NCBI GenBank assembly: GCA_039820925.1
Contig: JBCBPD010000002.1
Span: forward strand, 21,887-85,886
Source of the DNA: Bacteroidota bacterium
GTDB lineage: Bacteria > Bacteroidota > Bacteroidia > Flavobacteriales > Flavobacteriaceae
Direction of reading: 5' to 3'
Length of the DNA stretch: 64,000 bases
Positions 1 to 9,271 of the stretch are shown piece by piece. The notes below the pieces were generated by a model that was given only the letters and a program-made list of their open reading frames with translations, did not search any database and had not been told where the DNA came from. Position 1 is the first letter of the stretch; each line of letters begins with the position of its first letter. The position numbers and the translations under genes were made by a program.

Positions 1-603
1 ATTACCTACCCCGATGAATTTCACATTTTAAATGAAGACAAATTTGTTTGCCGTGCATTGGACAACCGCGCAGGCGGATTCATGATTGCTGAAGTAGCCC
101 GTTTATTGCATGAAAACAAGGTTAAGCTACCTTTCGGTTTATATATTACCAATTCCGTACAAGAAGAAATTGGACTGCGCGGTGCTGAAATGATAACAGA
201 AACCATCAAACCCAACGTCGCCATTGTTACCGATGTTACGCATGATACGACAACTCCTATGATTGACAAAAAGGTTCAAGGAGATTGTTCCATGGGGAAA
301 GGCCCTGTGGTATCTTATGCACCTGCAGTGCAACAAAAACTGCGTGAACGCATTATTGAAACTGCTGAAGCCAAAGAGATTCCTTTTCAACGGCAAGCTT
401 CTTCAAGATACACAGGAACGGATACAGATGCCTTCGCATACAGCAATGGCGGAGTAGCCTCAGCATTGATTTCTTTGCCCTTACGCTACATGCATACAAC
501 CGTTGAAACCGTTCATAGGGATGACGTGGAAAACGTGATTCGTTTGATTTACGAAACCCTCTTGACTATAAAATCCGGGGAGACTTTTAGTTATTTCGAT
601 TAA
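1..603 (+). CDS. M42 family metallopeptidase (5'-truncated by window edge)
   Basis: Frame is open from base 1 (ITYPDEF...RALDNRAGG). Motifs ALDNR, VQEEIGLRGA, DVTHD, GTDTDA and PLRYMHT are typical of M42. Confidence 0.9.
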   Translation: MTYPDEFHILNEDKFVCRALDNRAGGFMIAEVARLLHENKVKLPFGLYITNSVQEEIGLRGAEMITETIKPNVAIVTDVTHDTTTPMIDKKVQGDCSMGKGPVVSYAPAVQQKLRERIIETAEAKEIPFQRQASSRYTGTDTDAFAYSNGGVASALISLPLRYMHTTVETVHRDDVENVIRLIYETLLTIKSGETFSYFD

Positions 604-623
604 GCATTTAAAAGAATTTAAGG

Positions 624-1163
624 ATGGATGAATACGTTGACATCCTTGATGAAGAGGGAAACTACACGAATACCACCCTTTTGAAATCAGAAGCGCACCG
701 ACAGGGGCTGTTTCATTCAACCGTACACATTTGGTGTTATGACCCTTTAGGGTCTGTTTTGCTACAACAACGCGGCAAGCACAAAAAAACGTTTCCATTG
801 CTTTGGGATGTTTCGGTAGCGGGTCATGTGGCAGCTGGCGAAAGTATGGAACTGGGAGCACAACGGGAGATTTCCGAAGAGATTGGCGTTTCAATTCAGA
901 TTCAGAAGCTACAAAAACTCAAAGTGTTCAAAACGGAACATCGCCACTCTGAAACGCTCTTTGACCGGGAATTTACCCACACTTTTTTATATCCTTTACC
1001 CCAAGAAACGGAACTGACTCCACAAACGTCAGAGGTAGAAGCCCTAGAATGGTTTACGCTCGAAGCATTTGAGAAAATGGTTGCCTCGGAAGATTCTCGT
1101 TTGGTTCCCAACTCAGAAAACAGATATCAAGTGGTGGTTAACGCTTTGAAAGGAAAGCTTTAA
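624..1163 (+). CDS. NUDIX hydrolase, IPP-isomerase-like
   Basis: Nudix box GHVAAGESMELGAQREISEEIG; LLQQRGKHKKTFPLLWDVSVAGH. Confidence 0.8.
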   Translation: MDEYVDILDEEGNYTNTTLLKSEAHRQGLFHSTVHIWCYDPLGSVLLQQRGKHKKTFPLLWDVSVAGHVAAGESMELGAQREISEEIGVSIQIQKLQKLKVFKTEHRHSETLFDREFTHTFLYPLPQETELTPQTSEVEALEWFTLEAFEKMVASEDSRLVPNSENRYQVVVNALKGKL

Positions 1164-2539
1164 AACTCCCAACTGGGTGGTTCTATAGGCGCATCCAAAG
1201 AAAACTGGTGTTGTTTTCCACTAGCCATATCTTTTATAATGTAATATCCCCCTTCTAGTTCTTTAGGACCCAACAGGATAACACAAGGGACTTTTCGCCT
1301 ATCTGCATATTTCATCTGCTTTTGCATTTTAGCCGCAGTAGGATAAAAATCAACATTGTGGCCCATCTGTCTGTAACGCTTGACGAGTTTCATTGCAGCC
1401 AAAGCTTCTTTATCACCAAAGTTGAGGCATAGTATATGACTGGGGAGATTGAAATATTCAGGAAACAGCCCGAGTTCTTCCAATACCAAATAGATGCGGT
1501 CCAAACCAAAAGAAATACCAACGCCACTAACGTCTTTTAATCCAAAAATCCCAGTCAAGTCGTCATAACGTCCACCGCCACCAATGGACCCCATAGCTAT
1601 CCCTTCTGGCGCGGCCACTTCGAAAATTGCACCTGTATAATAGTTTAATCCACGAGCTAAGGTGACGTCCAATTCTAGTTTTGCAGTTTGTAAACCTAAT
1701 TCTTCGACCCAGGTATAGATTTCTTCTAGCTCTCCTACCCCTTCCAAACCAATCTCGGATTCAGATAAGAGCTTTTTCAATTGCTCAAACTGCTGGCTAA
1801 TATCCCCTTCCATTTGGAAAAGCGGGGCTGCTCTTTCAATCGCATGAGCCGATAATCCCCGCTCCATCATTTCGGCTTTGACTTTCTCTTCTCCTATCTT
1901 GTCCAACTTATCTAAAGCAACGGTAAAATCAATCAAAAGATGCTGTGCTCCAATGACCTCGGCTACTCCAGAAAGGATTTTTCGATTATTCATTTTGATG
2001 GTACAGCCTTCTAATCCCAAATCAGTAAAAATCGCATCATACAAGCTGACGAACTCAACCTCTTGCAAAAGCGATTTTGCCCCGACCACATCAGCATCGC
2101 ATTGGTAAAACTCGCGAAAACGCCCTTTTTGCGGACGGTCTGCTCTCCACACGGGTTGGATTTGGTATCGCTTGAAAGGAAAGGCAATCTCATTTTGGTG
2201 CATCACCACATAGCGGGCAAAAGGAACCGTTAAGTCATAACGCAGCGCTTTTTCTGTAATTTTTGGAGCTATTGTGGTTGAATTTTTTGAACTATAGGTG
2301 ACATCGTCCACTTTGGAGATAAAGTCACCAGAGTTCAGAATTTTGAAAATCAATCTATCCCCTTCTTCTCCATATTTTCCTAAAAGCGTTTCGGAATTCT
2401 CGAAAGATGGCGTCTCGATAGGCTCAAAACCATACCGTTCAAAATGTTTTTTGATGGTTTCGGTAATGTGCTGGCGTTTGGCTACTTCTGAAGGCGAAAA
2501 ATCTCGGGTTCCTTTAGGTAGAGATGGTTTTTGCGGCAT
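1160..2539 (-). CDS. hisS: Histidine--tRNA ligase
   Basis: PKGTRDF, RYDLTVPFAR, YQIQPVWRADRPQKGRFREFYQCDAD, LARGLNYYTG, GGGRYD. Start placed at ATG 2539, just downstream of the promoter. Confidence 0.97.
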   Translation of the reverse strand: MPQKPSLPKGTRDFSPSEVAKRQHITETIKKHFERYGFEPIETPSFENSETLLGKYGEEGDRLIFKILNSGDFISKVDDVTYSSKNSTTIAPKITEKALRYDLTVPFARYVVMHQNEIAFPFKRYQIQPVWRADRPQKGRFREFYQCDADVVGAKSLLQEVEFVSLYDAIFTDLGLEGCTIKMNNRKILSGVAEVIGAQHLLIDFTVALDKLDKIGEEKVKAEMMERGLSAHAIERAAPLFQMEGDISQQFEQLKKLLSESEIGLEGVGELEEIYTWVEELGLQTAKLELDVTLARGLNYYTGAIFEVAAPEGIAMGSIGGGGRYDDLTGIFGLKDVSGVGISFGLDRIYLVLEELGLFPEYFNLPSHILCLNFGDKEALAAMKLVKRYRQMGHNVDFYPTAAKMQKQMKYADRRKVPCVILLGPKELEGGYYIIKDMASGKQHQFSLDAPIEPPSWEF

Positions 2540-2556
2540 GATTTCAAATTCTCGTG

Positions 2557-2564
2557 CAAATATA
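2557..2564 (-). promoter_or_regulatory. Bacteroidota housekeeping -7 promoter element for hisS
   Basis: Minus strand TATATTTG matches TAnnTTTG, 17 nt upstream of the start codon. Confidence 0.7.
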
Positions 2565-2700
2565 CATGGATTCAAGCTTTGGATTCATCAATTCAAATTG
2601 CGCATTGATGAATTCCATCTGATTGATGCATCCAAAAGAATGTAATATTACAATCAGTATTGTAAAGTAAACACCCCCAAGTGATTTCCTTTTTGCTCTT

Positions 2701-2726
2701 GAGGCCGCCGAAAGGTGGCCTTTTTT
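2701..2726 (+). terminator. Rho-independent terminator (orphan)
   Basis: GGCCGCC-GAAA-GGTGGCC followed by TTTTTT; no plus-strand CDS lies directly upstream. Confidence 0.75.
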
Positions 2727-2869
2727 ATTCAACTAGGGTCAAATTAAAACAAACCTTGCAACCATCGATTTGCTCGGGGTATCTATCAATTCAAAACAGG
2801 CATAGGTCAATTCCAGTCATTACAATAGCGAAAAAGGGATTATTCTTGGAAAACAGTCTTTAATCACTT

Positions 2870-3076
2870 ATGAAAACTACTGCTTTCTTATCGTTTGGCT
2901 TATTTATTATTATCCTTTTTGCTTCCTGCTCTAAGCAAGAAGATGATATTGGCCTGCAAGGCAGTGCAGTTATTGATAGCCATATTGATTTTTCTAGCAA
3001 TCAATCACAAAATACAAATGGCGTCAACACTCAATTTGGCGACCATGAACAAACAGATGGGCCTATAGATGAATAA
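2870..3076 (+). CDS. Small lipoprotein/lipopeptide A (68 aa), C-terminus GDHEQTDGPIDE
   Basis: MK + hydrophobic stretch + lipobox LFAS-C20; acidic SKQEDD after Cys; C-terminal 12-mer shared with the neighbouring paralog. Confidence 0.8.
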   Translation: MKTTAFLSFGLFIIILFASCSKQEDDIGLQGSAVIDSHIDFSSNQSQNTNGVNTQFGDHEQTDGPIDE

Positions 3077-3175
3077 TTAGTTTTAGTATCTCGCATTTTG
3101 CCATAGGTCCAATCAGAATCATTTTAGACTAGAAAAAGGGCCATTCTTAAGAAGTAATCTTTAAATCTAACAAAT

Positions 3176-3334
3176 ATGAAATTCAACTTGATTTTTCTGT
3201 TTAGTCTTATTGTTGGCCTATTTATGGTTTCCTGTTCTGCCGAAGATGGGGAAATAGGGATACAAAATGAGGATAATTTACACGCTATTGAAACTGGTGA
3301 CCATGAACGAACAGATGGACCCATAGATGAGTGA
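3176..3334 (+). CDS. Small lipoprotein/lipopeptide B (52 aa), C-terminus GDHERTDGPIDE; absent from ORF track
   Basis: Hand translation: MKFNLIFLFSLIVGLFMVSCSAEDGEIGIQNEDNLHAIETGDHERTDGPIDE*. Lipobox FMVS-C20; paralog of 2870-3076. Confidence 0.8.
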   Translation: MKFNLIFLFSLIVGLFMVSCSAEDGEIGIQNEDNLHAIETGDHERTDGPIDE

Positions 3335-3367
3335 TGAGTTTTTGGCATATTACTTTTTGCCAAAGGC

Positions 3368-3838
3368 TTATTCCATAATCTGTTCAAACCACTGATACAA
3401 CTCTCCTTTAGTTATAACAGCACCTTGTTGAATCAACTCGAATTTATCTTGGTTTTTATCCTCGGAATAGGCTTTTGAAGCCGTTAAATACTCTACAAAA
3501 TCGGATTGAAAATTTCGTTTGAACCAAGAAAACCCTTGTTGGGTGCGCAAATCAATTTCGGGGTTCAGTACTTTCACCGAAAAGAGTTTCATTTCTTTTT
3601 CGGTCAAATGGAACAAATGCATATGCAATTCCGAGATGTTTTCGAGGTACTCCACACGGTTTAAAACGCCTTCCCAAATCAAATCACTGAATACATCCAA
3701 TTCTTGCTCGGCAACTTCAGGTTTGTCTTTTTTTAACGCAGACCATTCCTCACCCGTAATGGACTGTGTCGCCAAAAAATTAATGAATTCCGGATGGAGC
3801 TCCTCTAGTTGCTGTTGCGTGAGACGTGTGTATTTCAT
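3368..3838 (-). CDS. Conserved Bacteroidota hypothetical protein (DUF6495-like)
   Basis: MKYTRLTQQQLEELHPEFINFLATQSITGEEW...ELDVFSDLIWEGVL. Start set to ATG 3838, downstream of TAnnTTTG (3845-3852). Confidence 0.75.
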   Translation of the reverse strand: MKYTRLTQQQLEELHPEFINFLATQSITGEEWSALKKDKPEVAEQELDVFSDLIWEGVLNRVEYLENISELHMHLFHLTEKEMKLFSVKVLNPEIDLRTQQGFSWFKRNFQSDFVEYLTASKAYSEDKNQDKFELIQQGAVITKGELYQWFEQIME

Positions 3839-3851
3839 GAGGTGCAAAAAT

Positions 3852-3883
3852 AAAAAAGGCCGTGTGGAACACACGACCTTTTT
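3852..3883 (-). terminator. Terminator hairpin downstream of the TonB receptor
   Basis: AAAAAAGGCCGTGTG-GAA-CACACGACCTTTT inverted repeat with flanking A/T tracts. Confidence 0.65.
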
Positions 3884-3904
3884 CAGATAAATCTTTAGGT
3901 ATTC

Positions 3905-6900
3905 TTAGTTGAAAATGTAGCGCACCCCAACTTGTGCCTGCCATCTGGATAGCAAACGCGTATCAGCAGAGAAGGTTTCGTTACGATTCTCATCAAAAGT
4001 ATAAATCGGAGCCTGAGTGAAATCAGGAACAAAATTGTTTGGGTCTGGGTCGGCATCTTGGAAGGATACACCCAAAACTTGGTCAAAATCTTGTCGTTCT
4101 ACAACACCCCAATTGGAATTGATAAGGTTACCTACATTAAGGATATCCAAACTAAGTTGGAACTTGTTTTTATCATTGACTTTAATGTCCTGAAGGACTT
4201 TAACGTCCCATCTTCCTCTCCAAGGCGCTAGTGCACCATAGCGCTCAGCATACTGTCCGCGTCTGTCGCTTAAGTAATCATCTTGTTGGATGAAAGCTTC
4301 AAAAGCTTCCGCTTGCCCGGGACCGCTAAAGGTCATTTGACCTATTTCAGCTGAAGTAGGAATATACAAAAGGTCGTTTATGGAAGAACCATCATTGTTG
4401 ATGTCGCCCCCATAGATGTAATTGAACCTTCCGCTTCGCGCATACTCAAAGAAAGATGAAATCGTAGTCCCTGTTTTAAAGGACTTGGACAACACCCCAA
4501 TGATTCTGTGGGTATCACCATATCTTGAATTGGATAATACGTCTCGGTTTGCATTACCTACAATTGCGTTACCTGCGAAAGCGTCTCCAGTGATTTCTGC
4601 ATCAATGGAGTTTACTTCTTTGGCATCTAGGTAGCTATAAGCCAATTGAGTGTATAGCCCGTTATCGAAAGTCTTTTGCAACTTCAAGGTAGCATTCCAA
4701 ATTCTTCCTTTATCAGAATTGGTAAATACGAAAGCACTATTGGGTCCAAATAGCTGTGCCTTATCATCGTTGGTGTACAGTTCACGATTGTCCACTCCAA
4801 CCAAATTCGAGGAAGGGTTACCCAATCCCCAGTTTTGCACGTGAGCCGCGTTGATGTCCTTGGTATAAGAAACGTCAGCGGTTAAGATAATCCCATTGTC
4901 AAAACGTTTGTCTAAACCAATATTGGTTCTCCAAACCTGTGGCCATTGGAAATCAGGGTCAACTACTTGATAGAAGAAAAAGTCTGTTCCTTGAACTTGG
5001 TTCCCCAACCAAACAAACGGGAAACGTCCTGTAAACAAACCTGAACCTCCACGAAGCTGAAGGGTTTGGTTTCCTTTGACATCCCAATTGAATCCAAATC
5101 TTGGAGAGATCAACCAATCGCTTGTAGGCAATTGTTCTGAATCAATGGTAATACGTTCATTCGTGTCTGGGTCAAAATATAGAATATCTGGAGCGTAAGT
5201 ACCTCCTTCAGCGAGTGTACCTCCTTTACGGTCAATATTTTGTGCAATTTTTTGTCTGGTATCGAAATACAAGGGACGGTCAAATCGAACACCGTAAGTA
5301 AGTTTCAAGCGGTCTGTAACGTCCCATTGGTCTTGCAGGTAGAAAGACAATTGCCCCACATTGGTCTCGGCCAAAGCCCAACCCCCAGGTGTGCCATCAT
5401 CAAATTGATTGTTGTTGTTTGCTGTTGCAATAGCAGCATCAAAAGCACCTTGGTAGAAAGCGACCAAACCAGCCTCATTGGCCGGGTCACGATACTCAGC
5501 AATGGAATTGGTGGGGAAGAAAACCCCTTGAGCGCCATACGCACCAAGGTTAAAGGAGTTGTCAAATTGGAATCTTTCGTAAGAGAAACCAACAGTATAG
5601 GTGTGGTCTCCTTTAAAGATGTTCAAGTTATCTGTAATCTGGAATACCTTCTGGTCCAAACGGTTGTTGATGGAAAACGGTTCGTGTCCAGCAATGATGT
5701 AGTTCGAACTTCCGGTCTCATCCAAAATCACGATACTTGGCGCGGGTGTTGAAAATGGATTTCTAAAATCGTCAAAGTGGGTATACCCCATCTGGAGCTT
5801 GTTGGTAGCCGAAGAGGATAAAGTAGAGTTCAATTCAACTTGTACCGAACGAATGTTATTGTTGATTTCGTAACCCGCGTTTTCAAACTGCAAGGTTTGG
5901 GTACTAGGCCCTCTAAACGTTATCGCATCTCGGTTGGCAGGTTTTCCTTTGGAAGCATTCAAGAAGTTGTAAATCACAGCCAAACGGTTGTTGTCATTGA
6001 TGTTCCAATCCAGTTTGATGATTCCTTTGGTACTTTCTTGGTCAAAATTGAAGCCTGTAATAGCACCTGGGTTGTAGAAAATATCATTTCCAGAAGCATC
6101 TTGTCCTATAACCACCTGACGGAGGATATTATCCACCAACTGCATATCTGACTGCAACACACGCGATTCACTAATTCCACCTGTACCGGTATTTGGGACA
6201 AAACCATCTGTACCGAGCTCAGTTAGGTCGTCCTTCTCAAAGTTTACGAAAAAGAAAAGTTTGTTTTTGACGATGGGTCCACCAATACTCAAACCGTATT
6301 GTGTTTGTTCCAATCCGGTTTTGGTCACATCATCGCCGTTGATTTTACCACCGGTCAAGTCATCATTTCTGAAGAAACCATATACGGTTCCGTAGAAATC
6401 GTTAGTACCACTTTTGGTTACGGCGTTTACCGAAGCGCCAGTAAATCCAGATTGAGTTACATCATATGGTGCAGTAGTTACTTGGATTTGGTCAATCGCA
6501 TCCAAGGAAATCGGCTGCGCATTGGTTTGCCCTCCAGGAGTTGCCGCATCCAAACCAAAGGGGTTGTTGAAGATGGCACCATCCAGGGAAAAGTTGTTGT
6601 ATTGGTCATTTCTACCCCCGAAAGAAAGTCCTGAGGCTCCGGAAGAAGCGGCAGGTTCCAATCGGATGAAATCGTTTGCAGACCTTGAAATGGTTGGGAG
6701 TCTTGTCAGCTCACGTCGCCCAACACTCGTTTCAGCGCCTGTACGGTCACTTCCAAAAGTTCCAGATTGGTCTGACACCACAACCACTTCGTCCAGTGCT
6801 TGGCTATCCGATGCAAGTTGGGTGCTGTAGTTAAACGTTTTACCCAATGTTAGAAAGATTTCATTTCGAACATCCGATTTGAATCCAACATAAGAAATGG

Positions 6901-7135
6901 TTACTTCGTAGGGTCCACCAATCCTTAGGTTTAATAGATTGAAACGACCTTCTTCGTTGGTAATGGCTCCGTAACGGGTTCCAGTAGGGGTATGAACGGC
7001 TACCACATTGGCACCGTAAAGGGGTTCACCCTGGTCATCCGCGACAGCACCACGGATATTTGAGGTAGTAACCTGGGCATAACCCGAGGTAATGAAGGCG
7101 AAAACCAACACCACCAAAGGCATAATTTTCTTCAT
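3905..7135 (-). CDS. TonB-dependent receptor, Oar-like, with N-terminal carboxypeptidase-regulatory-like domain
   Basis: Signal peptide; GAVADDQGEPLYGANV; GGRNDQYNNFSLDG; SGFTGASVNAVTKSGTN; C-terminal VGVRYIFN. Confidence 0.9.
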   Translation of the reverse strand: MKKIMPLVVLVFAFITSGYAQVTTSNIRGAVADDQGEPLYGANVVAVHTPTGTRYGAITNEEGRFNLLNLRIGGPYEVTISYVGFKSDVRNEIFLTLGKTFNYSTQLASDSQALDEVVVVSDQSGTFGSDRTGAETSVGRRELTRLPTISRSANDFIRLEPAASSGASGLSFGGRNDQYNNFSLDGAIFNNPFGLDAATPGGQTNAQPISLDAIDQIQVTTAPYDVTQSGFTGASVNAVTKSGTNDFYGTVYGFFRNDDLTGGKINGDDVTKTGLEQTQYGLSIGGPIVKNKLFFFVNFEKDDLTELGTDGFVPNTGTGGISESRVLQSDMQLVDNILRQVVIGQDASGNDIFYNPGAITGFNFDQESTKGIIKLDWNINDNNRLAVIYNFLNASKGKPANRDAITFRGPSTQTLQFENAGYEINNNIRSVQVELNSTLSSSATNKLQMGYTHFDDFRNPFSTPAPSIVILDETGSSNYIIAGHEPFSINNRLDQKVFQITDNLNIFKGDHTYTVGFSYERFQFDNSFNLGAYGAQGVFFPTNSIAEYRDPANEAGLVAFYQGAFDAAIATANNNNQFDDGTPGGWALAETNVGQLSFYLQDQWDVTDRLKLTYGVRFDRPLYFDTRQKIAQNIDRKGGTLAEGGTYAPDILYFDPDTNERITIDSEQLPTSDWLISPRFGFNWDVKGNQTLQLRGGSGLFTGRFPFVWLGNQVQGTDFFFYQVVDPDFQWPQVWRTNIGLDKRFDNGIILTADVSYTKDINAAHVQNWGLGNPSSNLVGVDNRELYTNDDKAQLFGPNSAFVFTNSDKGRIWNATLKLQKTFDNGLYTQLAYSYLDAKEVNSIDAEITGDAFAGNAIVGNANRDVLSNSRYGDTHRIIGVLSKSFKTGTTISSFFEYARSGRFNYIYGGDINNDGSSINDLLYIPTSAEIGQMTFSGPGQAEAFEAFIQQDDYLSDRRGQYAERYGALAPWRGRWDVKVLQDIKVNDKNKFQLSLDILNVGNLINSNWGVVERQDFDQVLGVSFQDADPDPNNFVPDFTQAPIYTFDENRNETFSADTRLLSRWQAQVGVRYIFN

Positions 7136-7179
7136 AATGAGCTAGTTATAAGTTTTTCGAGTTCCTGCAAACATAGGAC

Positions 7180-7209
7180 AAAAAAAAGAGCTATGCACGC
7201 ATAGCTCTT
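7180..7209 (-). terminator. Terminator of the rpsF-rpsR-rplI operon
   Basis: Minus strand AAGAGCTATGCGTGCATAGCTCTTTTTTT. Confidence 0.8.
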
Positions 7210-7235
7210 AACAAGTTATTAACTATAATTTGATG

Positions 7236-7688
7236 TTATTTTGCCTCGGCAATCACTTCAAATGGAAAATCTACAATTACCTCTCTGTGTAAACGGATTT
7301 GGGCGTTGTATGGCCCAACTCTTTTAATGGTTCCACCCTTGATGGCGATAAACTTTCGATCTACGGCTTGACCCGCTTTTTCCAAAGCAGCAGCCAAATC
7401 AATATTACTTACGGAACCGAACAATTTGTCACCCGCACCTACCTTAGCTGGAATTCTAATTTCCAAACCTTTAATTGCGGTTGCCTTTTCGTTCGCTTCA
7501 TCGATAACCTTCTTTTCTTTGTAGGCGCGTTGTCTTAGGTTCTCGGCCAAAACCTTTTTTGCAGAAGGTGTTGCCAATGCCGCTAGCCCTTGAGGAATCA
7601 AATAGTTTCTACCATAACCGTTCTTAACGGTTACGATATCATCCTTAAACCCTAAATCTTGTACGTCTTGCTTTAAAATAATTTCCAT
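7236..7688 (-). CDS. rplI: 50S ribosomal protein L9
   Basis: MEIILKQDVQDLG...VKNGYGRNYLIPQG, KLFGSV. Confidence 0.98.
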   Translation of the reverse strand: MEIILKQDVQDLGFKDDIVTVKNGYGRNYLIPQGLAALATPSAKKVLAENLRQRAYKEKKVIDEANEKATAIKGLEIRIPAKVGAGDKLFGSVSNIDLAAALEKAGQAVDRKFIAIKGGTIKRVGPYNAQIRLHREVIVDFPFEVIAEAK

Positions 7689-7703
7689 GCTTCTAGTACT
7701 TTA

Positions 7704-8000
7704 TTATTTCAACATATCGCCTACGTAGGGCATTAAGGCCAAGTGACGGGCACGTTTTACTGCTTGCGCCACCTTTCTTTGATACTTCAAAGAAGTTCCT
7801 GTCAATCGTCTTGGTAAAAGCTTTCCTTGCTCGTTAACCAATTTCATCAAAAAGTCAGGGTCTTTGTAATCAATGTACTTGATACCTGATTTTTTAAAAC
7901 GACAGTATTTCTTTTGTTTGTTCGTTTCAATGTTCAATGGGGTCAAATACCGGATTTCCCCATCTTTTTTTGCTTTTGCTTGTTGTTCTATTGATGCCAT
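7704..8000 (-). CDS. rpsR: 30S ribosomal protein S18
   Basis: IDYKDPDFL...[34 protein letters not shown]. Confidence 0.98.
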
Positions 8001-8578: not shown

Positions 8579-9271
8579 ATGAAACTAAAAAGTATAATCG
8601 TTGACGACTCCTCCATGCAGCGCATGGCCGTGGCGAAGTTGGTCAACAATCATCCTCATTTAGCCCTGGTCGCAGAATACAGCAACGCAATCGAGGCTAA
8701 AAACGGTTTGAAAAACCACGAAATCGACCTAATCTTCCTCGACGTAGAAATGCCAATCATCAACGGCTTTGACCTTTTGGAAGCATTGGAAAACCCACCT
8801 CAAGTCATTTTAATTACCGGAAAGCCCGATTACGCACTGAAGGCTTTCGATTATGACGTAACCGACTACCTACACAAACCAATAACCATGGCACGTTTTG
8901 AGGCTTCTGTAAAAAGAGCTGTTACCAAATACGAGCAAATGAATCGGGTTGATGAGGACGAAGAGCATATTTTTGTAAAAAGCAACCTAAAGAAGCGAAA
9001 AGTAATCCTTAATGATATCAAATGGATTGAAGCTTTGGGTGATTATATCAAGTTGGTGACTGATGAAGCAAACATTGTGATTCTTTCTACAATGAAGTCT
9101 TTCGAAAAGCAGTTGCCACCAGAAAAGTTTTTGCGTATCCATAAGTCGTATATCGTAAATCTGGAGAAAATTGAAAAGTTCAACAGTAAGAATGTGGAAG
9201 TAGGGGGACGACAGATACCATTAAGTAGAAACAAGAAAACCGAGTTGGCTGAAGCTTTAGCCAACGTATAA
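8579..9271 (+). CDS. LytTR family response regulator
   Basis: REC domain (IIVDD, LIFLDVEMP, DYLHKP) plus LytTR domain (WIEALGDY, FLRIHKSYIVNL). Confidence 0.93.
   Translation: MKLKSIIVDDSSMQRMAVAKLVNNHPHLALVAEYSNAIEAKNGLKNHEIDLIFLDVEMPIINGFDLLEALENPPQVILITGKPDYALKAFDYDVTDYLHKPITMARFEASVKRAVTKYEQMNRVDEDEEHIFVKSNLKKRKVILNDIKWIEALGDYIKLVTDEANIVILSTMKSFEKQLPPEKFLRIHKSYIVNLEKIEKFNSKNVEVGGRQIPLSRNKKTELAEALANV

Follow-up and report, generated by a model that had tools for sequence, protein, structure and literature searches.

The short repeated boxes that stand ahead of two adjacent micro-lipoprotein genes, lipo1 and lipo2, are probably the parts of a single activator-dependent sigma-A promoter, which a tandem duplication copied along with its small lipoprotein gene. 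At lipo1 the promoter is headed by an operator made of direct repeats of about 11 nt each, set at an exact 21-nt period and belonging to a family with the consensus CATCCGTCAAT; the conserved block is contiguous, from -5 to +6 around the core of each half-site, and CATAGGTC, the first of the boxes, is the 5' part of the proximal (promoter-side) half-site. In the window, i.e. the whole 64,000-nt stretch of DNA analysed, both genes are flanked by hisS (minus strand, start 2539) on one side and by a DUF6495 gene (3368-3874, minus strand) on the other. In a collection of 5.8 billion proteins the two are found in just one further genome, the Bacteroidota MAG L001, where they again form a pair at this place; a second MAG, L002, has one gene copy. 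The elements of the first copy are the following.

2756-2771, + strand: weak third half-site, TTGCAACCATCGATTT (model score 7.9), in 21-nt phase with the other two
2777-2792, + strand: distal half-site of the lipo1 operator, GGGTATCTATCAATTC (model score 16.1), nearly invariant in L001 and L002
2798-2813, + strand: proximal half-site of the lipo1 operator, AGGCATAGGTCAATTC (model score 19.1), with the core purine R at 2806
2830-2838, + strand: GAAAAAGGG, a clade-restricted box of the spacer (about -23 to -15)
2841-2848, + strand: -7 box TATTCTTG, one mismatch to TAnnTTTG, enclosing ATTCTT, at +35 from R
2853-2869, + strand: predicted lipo1 5' UTR, its start (~2853, R+47) taken from the box position in PMC9723704
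2870-3076, + strand: micro-lipoprotein 1 (lipo1), 68 aa, lipobox FASC, C-terminus GDHEQTDGPIDE
3176-3334, + strand: micro-lipoprotein 2 (lipo2), 52 aa, lipobox VSC, C-terminus GDHERTDGPIDE

In Flavobacterium psychrophilum the sigma-A box occupies -12 to -5, a variant, TAnnTTGY, being found at the same place (PMC9723704); transcription is therefore predicted to start 47 nt past the core of the proximal half-site. The predicted starts in the window are:

lipo1: ~2853
copy 2: ~3154
upstream unit (candidate small RNA): ~2655

The lipo1 promoter has no -33 TTG element. According to the mechanism proposed, a dimeric activator sitting at about -73 to -62 and about -52 to -41 would recruit RNA polymerase, and lipo1 transcription would begin near 2853. 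A sigma-70 promoter scan is uninformative for Bacteroidota.

The hisS-DUF6495 neighbourhood is kept across 80 Flavobacteriaceae genomes, with a gap of mostly 60-100 bp. In Flagellimonas (L003-L040) the gap is a variable slot, occupied in about 15 species by a lipoprotein of 190-280 aa with an N-terminus of the form ...SCSGEDGxxGxQGE, collagen-like repeats (matching Pfam Collagen) and a common C-terminal domain. The same operator and promoter layout stands before these homologous collagen-like lipoprotein genes in the slot of about 15 Flagellimonas genomes. The 21-nt period is exact in 17 of 20 slot promoters, the exceptions being two downstream copies and L007, and 13 of the 20 have, at exactly +35 from the proximal core, a -7 box with no more than one mismatch. 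The half-site model was initially built from sites picked by eye. A position-weight dimer model matches the 64-kb window only at 2579-2615, 2756-2792 and 2777-2813 (0 matches in shuffles), and its count has a sole peak, at spacing 21; over 80 syntenic loci (680 kb), its matches are confined to the slot promoters plus a single further lipoprotein gene (L006). In a strain close to F. olearia (L013), RNA-seq contigs show that the homologue of the slot gene is transcribed, these being assembled contigs that cannot place the 5' end.

The N-terminus of the micro-lipoproteins, SCSAEDGEIGIQ, is common to the collagen-like slot lipoproteins, hence lipo1 and lipo2 are shortened derivatives of that family, relatives of the 190-280 aa collagen-like lipoprotein that occupies the slot in sister species. 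Both end in GDHE[Q/R]TDGPIDE, and neither Pfam nor NCBIfam holds a family that matches them. The slot itself is seen in several states: in L014 it carries two tandem lipoprotein copies with a full operator before each, and in L017 a frameshifted lipoprotein copy (69 aa + 128 aa).

On the minus strand, at 2603-2632, there are two half-site-like copies 18 nt apart that face hisS, the inner copy preceding the hisS -7 box by 45 nt. L001 and L002 share this arrangement.

The reach of the operator becomes apparent in metagenomes. The pattern ATNNRTCAANNCAAANNNNNCATNNRTCAAT was found at no fewer than 120 metagenome loci (at least 120), with up to 5 sites on one 1.3-Mb contig against an expectation of about 1e-4. 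Promoter statistics, computed on 95 non-redundant sites, reveal conservation of bases that are not part of the search pattern: T at +39 in 78/95 and at +40 in 74/95, preceded by TA at +35/+36. A box of the TAnnTTTG or TAnnTTGY type (at most one mismatch) is found at +35 in 34/95 sites, other offsets giving a background of about 2. TTG is absent from the 95-site profile where a -33 element would sit, the profile being GC-rich there. An ORF of 100 aa or more on the same strand, its start at a median of 73 nt downstream, follows 66/95 sites vs 17/95 in the divergent control, and the implied 5' UTRs have a typical length, with a median of about 26 nt. As to what is encoded, 36 downstream products are lipoprotein-like vs 1 in the divergent control; this amounts to 49% of downstream ORFs (36/74 unique, at least 35 aa) vs 14.5% of long ORFs at the same loci. 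About half of the targets of the metagenome operators are surface lipoproteins; the domains they carry are TIG, cadherin, Big_2, PKD, DUF285 or collagen (Pfam).

The sequence-only reading had allowed for an alternative sigma factor. What lies downstream is a box of sigma-A type (TAnnTTTG or TAnnTTGY) at the sigma-A position, which speaks against that proposal. A specific version of it sees an ECF sigma-factor promoter here, with the two repeats as its -35 (GTCAAC/T) and -10 (CCGTC) elements. Promoters of the ECF class are characterised by AAC and CGT motifs, and F. psychrophilum has a known CGT box of this type (PMC9723704). The elements are however near-identical direct repeats, sometimes three in number, the AAC-to-CGT spacer measures 14 nt instead of 16-17, and the sigma-A-type -7 box stands at a fixed +35 further downstream. 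An ECF promoter is extremely improbable, and was rejected on its spacing and on the downstream -7 box.

To return to the promoter and its two copies, a sequence read and a pattern search of the window place every box where it had been reported. The starts are:

CATAGGTC: 2801 and 3102, with no further copies in the 64-kb window
TCATT: 2817 (copy 1) and 3119 (copy 2)
GAAAAAGGG: 2830 (copy 1) and 3132 (copy 2)
ATTCTT: 2842 (copy 1) and 3143 (copy 2)
TCTTTAA: 2857 (copy 1) and 3158 (copy 2)

The boxes had been called identically spaced. This holds for the outermost ones, which are 56 nt apart in both copies, and does not hold for the inner distances: CATAGGTC to GAAAAAGGG takes 29 nt in copy 1 vs 30 nt in copy 2, due to an additional C (GGTC-C-AAT), and GAAAAAGGG to ATTCTT takes 12 nt vs 11 nt, so that the equal outer distance results from two opposite 1-nt indels that offset each other. 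The composite CATAGGTC-N20-23-GAAAAAGGG occurs twice in the window vs 0 times in 100 shuffles, and in none of 201 other loci searched.

Nor are the boxes equally conserved. At least two of them are genuine promoter parts: CATAGGTC lies in a half-site conserved across many species and ATTCTT belongs to a -7 box at a fixed distance from it, whereas GAAAAAGGG and TCTTTAA are kept only within three close genomes and TCATT is not conserved. GAAAAA, contained in GAAAAAGGG, is present in 5/5 micro-lipoprotein promoters of the three related genomes; it is missing from the wider set of promoters, and the place of GAAAAAGGG gives no signal in the 95 metagenome promoters either. TCTTTAA (2857-2863) would fall at +4 to +10 of the lipo1 transcript, given the predicted start. 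Neither copy has a clean TAnnTTTG, in agreement with the first description: TATTCTTG of copy 1 has one mismatch and CATTCTTA of copy 2 has three, while the neighbouring hisS has a perfect TATATTTG (2557-2564, minus strand). A related TAGGGTCAAATT reported near 2734 is present, at 2733-2744, with GTCAAAT kept at this place in the two nearest genomes; it falls below the half-site model (-1.2) and off the operator phase.

The proposed tandem duplication of about 300 bp, gene plus promoter, is borne out: the alignment of the two units runs through promoter, coding sequence and 3' flank, therefore homology, and not convergence or chance, explains the collinearity of the boxes. Since homologous 3' flanks follow lipo1, lipo2 and the L002 gene, the units are delimited as below, a GSCAWAGG microhomology recurring at 2799-2806, 3100-3107 and 3359-3366.

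2807-3107, + strand: duplication unit 1, 301 nt, with GSCAWAGG borders at the first two of these positions
3108-3366, + strand: duplication unit 2, 259 nt, ending with GCCAAAGG at 3359-3366
3077-3107, + strand: 3' flank of lipo1, with homologues behind lipo2 (3335-3366) and behind the single gene of L002
3099-3114, + strand: chimeric single half-site of copy 2, TGCCATAGGTCCAATC (score 9.2), with a 1-nt insertion in the core
3142-3149, + strand: degenerate -7 box of copy 2, CATTCTTA, its mismatches notwithstanding still at +35

An element of the form AGTTTTnGGCATATYACTTTTTGCC is found in the 3' flank behind each micro-lipoprotein gene, the single gene of L002 included. In one marine-metagenome run (X2), the window stretch 2813-3162 also has an L002-like single-copy form, in which the copy 1 upstream region is fused to a copy-2-like gene; one- and two-copy forms being found in one run, related strains of both kinds therefore coexist. 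The window itself derives from a metagenome, and the stretch was traced in marine-metagenome DNA runs only.

The duplication junction lies within the proximal half-site, thus copy 2 is without a distal half-site: the model score at -21 is -14.1. Copy 2 of L001 is alike, its half-site scoring 6.0 and its distal position -12.3. The stretch 3086-3099 was considered as a decayed distal half-site and ruled out; it is the 3' flank of the gene, also found behind the last copy and in L002. Copy 2 would have been born by duplication at the microhomology inside the proximal half-site, which would have left it with a single half-site, itself damaged, and with a -7 box of poor quality. The claim that the sites were selectively retained in both copies accordingly finds no support in the second, where the distal half-site is missing, the remaining one scores 9.2 vs 19.1 and the -7 box has three mismatches; a separate induction of each gene is therefore doubtful for copy 2.

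The boxes of copy 2 could be nothing other than functionless residue of the duplication, the gene being transcribed only by read-through from copy 1. Along this line, the upstream regions of the two paralogues are 65% identical, which is not above cross comparisons (63-66%), TCATT lacks conservation, that of GAAAAAGGG and TCTTTAA is limited to the clade, and a terminator scan finds none between lipo1 and lipo2. However, compensating 1-nt indels hold the -7 remnant of copy 2 at +35, and its upstream region is 77% identical to the orthologous region of L001, the neutral baseline being about 41-55% (fourfold-degenerate sites of the flanking genes are ~41% identical, with same-codon fractions of 0.51-0.65), which suggests that some function may remain. 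The residue explanation, less likely than not, applies to copy 2 alone; the operator of copy 1 is clearly conserved. That copy 2 has a promoter of its own is a tentative proposition, falling short of even chances. Copy 2 is probably expressed weakly, either by itself or via read-through from copy 1, the latter being proposed because of the lack of a terminator between the two genes.

Upstream of lipo1 there is a third unit of the same build.

2579-2615, + strand: third-unit operator, half-sites TTGGATTCATCAATTC and GCGCATTGATGAATTC 21 nt apart (scores 14.5 and 11.8)
2643-2650, + strand: -7-like box TAATATTA, exactly 35 nt past the proximal core
2655-2728, + strand: candidate small RNA, ~74 nt, with a strong intrinsic terminator (stem 2701-2722 + T run), divergent from hisS

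This operator is conserved in L001 and L002, and its +35 box reads TATTCTTG in L001 and TAATCTTG in L002 at the same offset. The candidate small RNA is 91-95% identical in L001/L002 vs ~41% at neutral sites, has a fold z-score of -3.06, and matches no Rfam family; it appears, from the shared motif arrangement, to be under the same operator control as lipo1. An Rfam scan of window positions 1-8000 returned nothing relevant. A weak match to Rfam MicX upstream of a TonB-dependent receptor gene (7063-7222, minus strand; 29.8 bits, gathering threshold 75) is probably due to chance.

As to what binds the operator, LytTR regulators recognise two repeats of 9-11 nt, 11-13 nt apart, just upstream of the core promoter, and share no strict consensus (PMC4847170); a loose one, [TA][AC][CA]GTTN[AG][TG], has been given (PMC5600425). 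The operator described here likewise consists of direct repeats of 9-11 nt with a spacer of 11-13 nt and holds a fixed position upstream of the core promoter. The family consensus TCCGTCAAT agrees with 8/9 positions of the loose LytTR consensus, with a 12-nt spacer; the half-sites in the window, TCTATCAAT and TAGGTCAAT, agree with just 5-6 of its 8 specified positions. From these resemblances, the activator would most likely be a LytTR-type response regulator, and the best candidate appears to be an orphan protein encoded in the window.

8579-9271, + strand: orphan response regulator, Pfam Response_reg + LytTR, candidate operator binder

Its gene lies 5.7 kb from the operator, adjoining rpsF-rpsR-rplI and priA, with no operator upstream and no partner kinase nearby. 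Within Flagellimonas the protein is 96-99% identical (aa), and in other Flavobacteriaceae genera 88-93%; for comparison, hisS is ~75% and DUF6495 ~83% identical across Flagellimonas. Such extreme conservation suits a regulator that has many sites. What ties it to the motif is solely their proximity and the high conservation of both. It is suggested, tentatively and as somewhat less than an even bet, that this orphan regulator is a global activator acting via CATCCGTCAAT-N10-CATCCGTCAAT, its targets in marine Flavobacteriaceae being a large, rapidly changing repertoire of surface lipoproteins and adhesins; if so, the operator would drive three tandem units at this locus, namely the small RNA and the two micro-lipoproteins. 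At L143 (4785-9012), in one instance only, a LytS-like histidine kinase and a LytTR regulator are encoded behind an operator-driven gene; the C-terminus of that gene's product resembles the one found in the collagen-like lipoproteins.

The same operator and promoter layout could instead serve an activator of the AraC/XylS type. AraC and XylS sites are typically tandem direct repeats with a 21-bp period, placed beside the core promoter. Moreover, in L128/L190, L148 and L121/L178 the gene right after the operator (at 1904-2395 in L128) encodes an HTH_18/AraC protein of 161-215 aa that has a membrane segment at its N-terminus, and a self-regulating small membrane-anchored HTH_18 protein could therefore be the binder. 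Yet each unit of the operator is one contiguous block of ~12 nt and not a two-part A/B box; half-sites of 15-17 nt with two sub-boxes were not found in it, CAAA and GGGG signals being confined to the inter-site spacer. In addition, the consensus is in keeping with the 9-nt LytTR one and a 12-nt spacer, no such AraC gene is seen in the window, and the AraC-type genes may merely be members of the regulon. An AraC-type binder is thus regarded as unlikely, and the LytTR-type regulator is preferred.

A further comparison is with peptide signalling. The sequence-only reading had both copies keeping selected regulator or alternative-sigma sites, each peptide gene being separately induced within an autoinduction loop. 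The operator is of a type like the AgrA and ComE sites, a LytTR regulator is nearby, the upstream region of copy 2 is fairly conserved between species, and the C-terminal GDHE[QR]TDGPIDE is under purifying selection, differences being mostly synonymous. Against it, copy 2 has no distal half-site and both its remaining site and its -7 box are damaged, while the -7 box is of the sigma-A type. A check of the neighbours for Agr/Com-like peptide autoinduction meets hisS, DUF6495, a TonB-dependent receptor and ribosomal protein genes, with no kinase, exporter or processing gene adjacent or nearby; the operator, which also stands ahead of hundreds of unrelated surface-lipoprotein genes, serves a large and mixed lipoprotein regulon, and the two genes are shortened relatives derived from a larger collagen-like lipoprotein. 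The loop is therefore not upheld, and this combination of selected sites, separate induction and autoinduction must be considered very unlikely.

Marine Flavobacteriaceae dominate particle and algal-surface communities, and their gene regulation is poorly mapped. A literature search found no description of the motif, nor of a LytTR regulon in Flavobacteriaceae. The promoter layout described here amounts to a promoter code, i.e. paired CATCCGTCAAT 21 nt apart and 35 nt ahead of a weak -7 box, that marks surface-lipoprotein and adhesin genes in many genomes and lets a regulon be predicted from sequence alone. The locus supplies a candidate regulator that can be tested, and is a clear example of a tandem duplication that copies just part of an operator.

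Among known systems, the closest likeness is to LytTR sites, such as those of AgrA at agr P2/P3, of ComE, of PlnC/PlnD and of Escherichia coli YpdB at yhjX: these too are imperfect direct repeats with a 21-bp period, just upstream of a core promoter that is weak without the activator (PMC4847170, PMC5600425). The element described here differs from them in its Bacteroidota sigma-A promoter (-7 TAnnTTTG, no -35 hexamer), in the sequence of its half-sites, in the absence of an adjacent kinase, peptide precursor or exporter operon, and in its predicted targets, which are many surface-lipoprotein genes. The AraC/XylS half-sites (araI1-I2, XylS at Pm) are similar in being 21-bp direct repeats that abut or overlap the polymerase region as an activator site; those of araI1-I2 and XylS are 15-17 nt long with two sub-boxes, whereas here there is one contiguous block of ~12 nt. 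With the sigma-A promoters of F. psychrophilum (TTG at -33, TAnnTTTG at -12 to -5; PMC9723704) the element shares such a -7 box, held at a fixed distance from the operator; it differs in having no -33 TTG and in its weak -7 boxes, as expected of activator-dependent promoters. Agr-type circuits likewise place small exported-peptide genes and a small RNA (a candidate one here) behind LytTR-like operators, but the present case has an orphan regulator and no AgrB/AgrC-like genes, and its operator is not confined to peptide genes. To sum up, the element is most probably an activator operator of the LytTR type, whose reach extends well beyond the hisS-DUF6495 locus.
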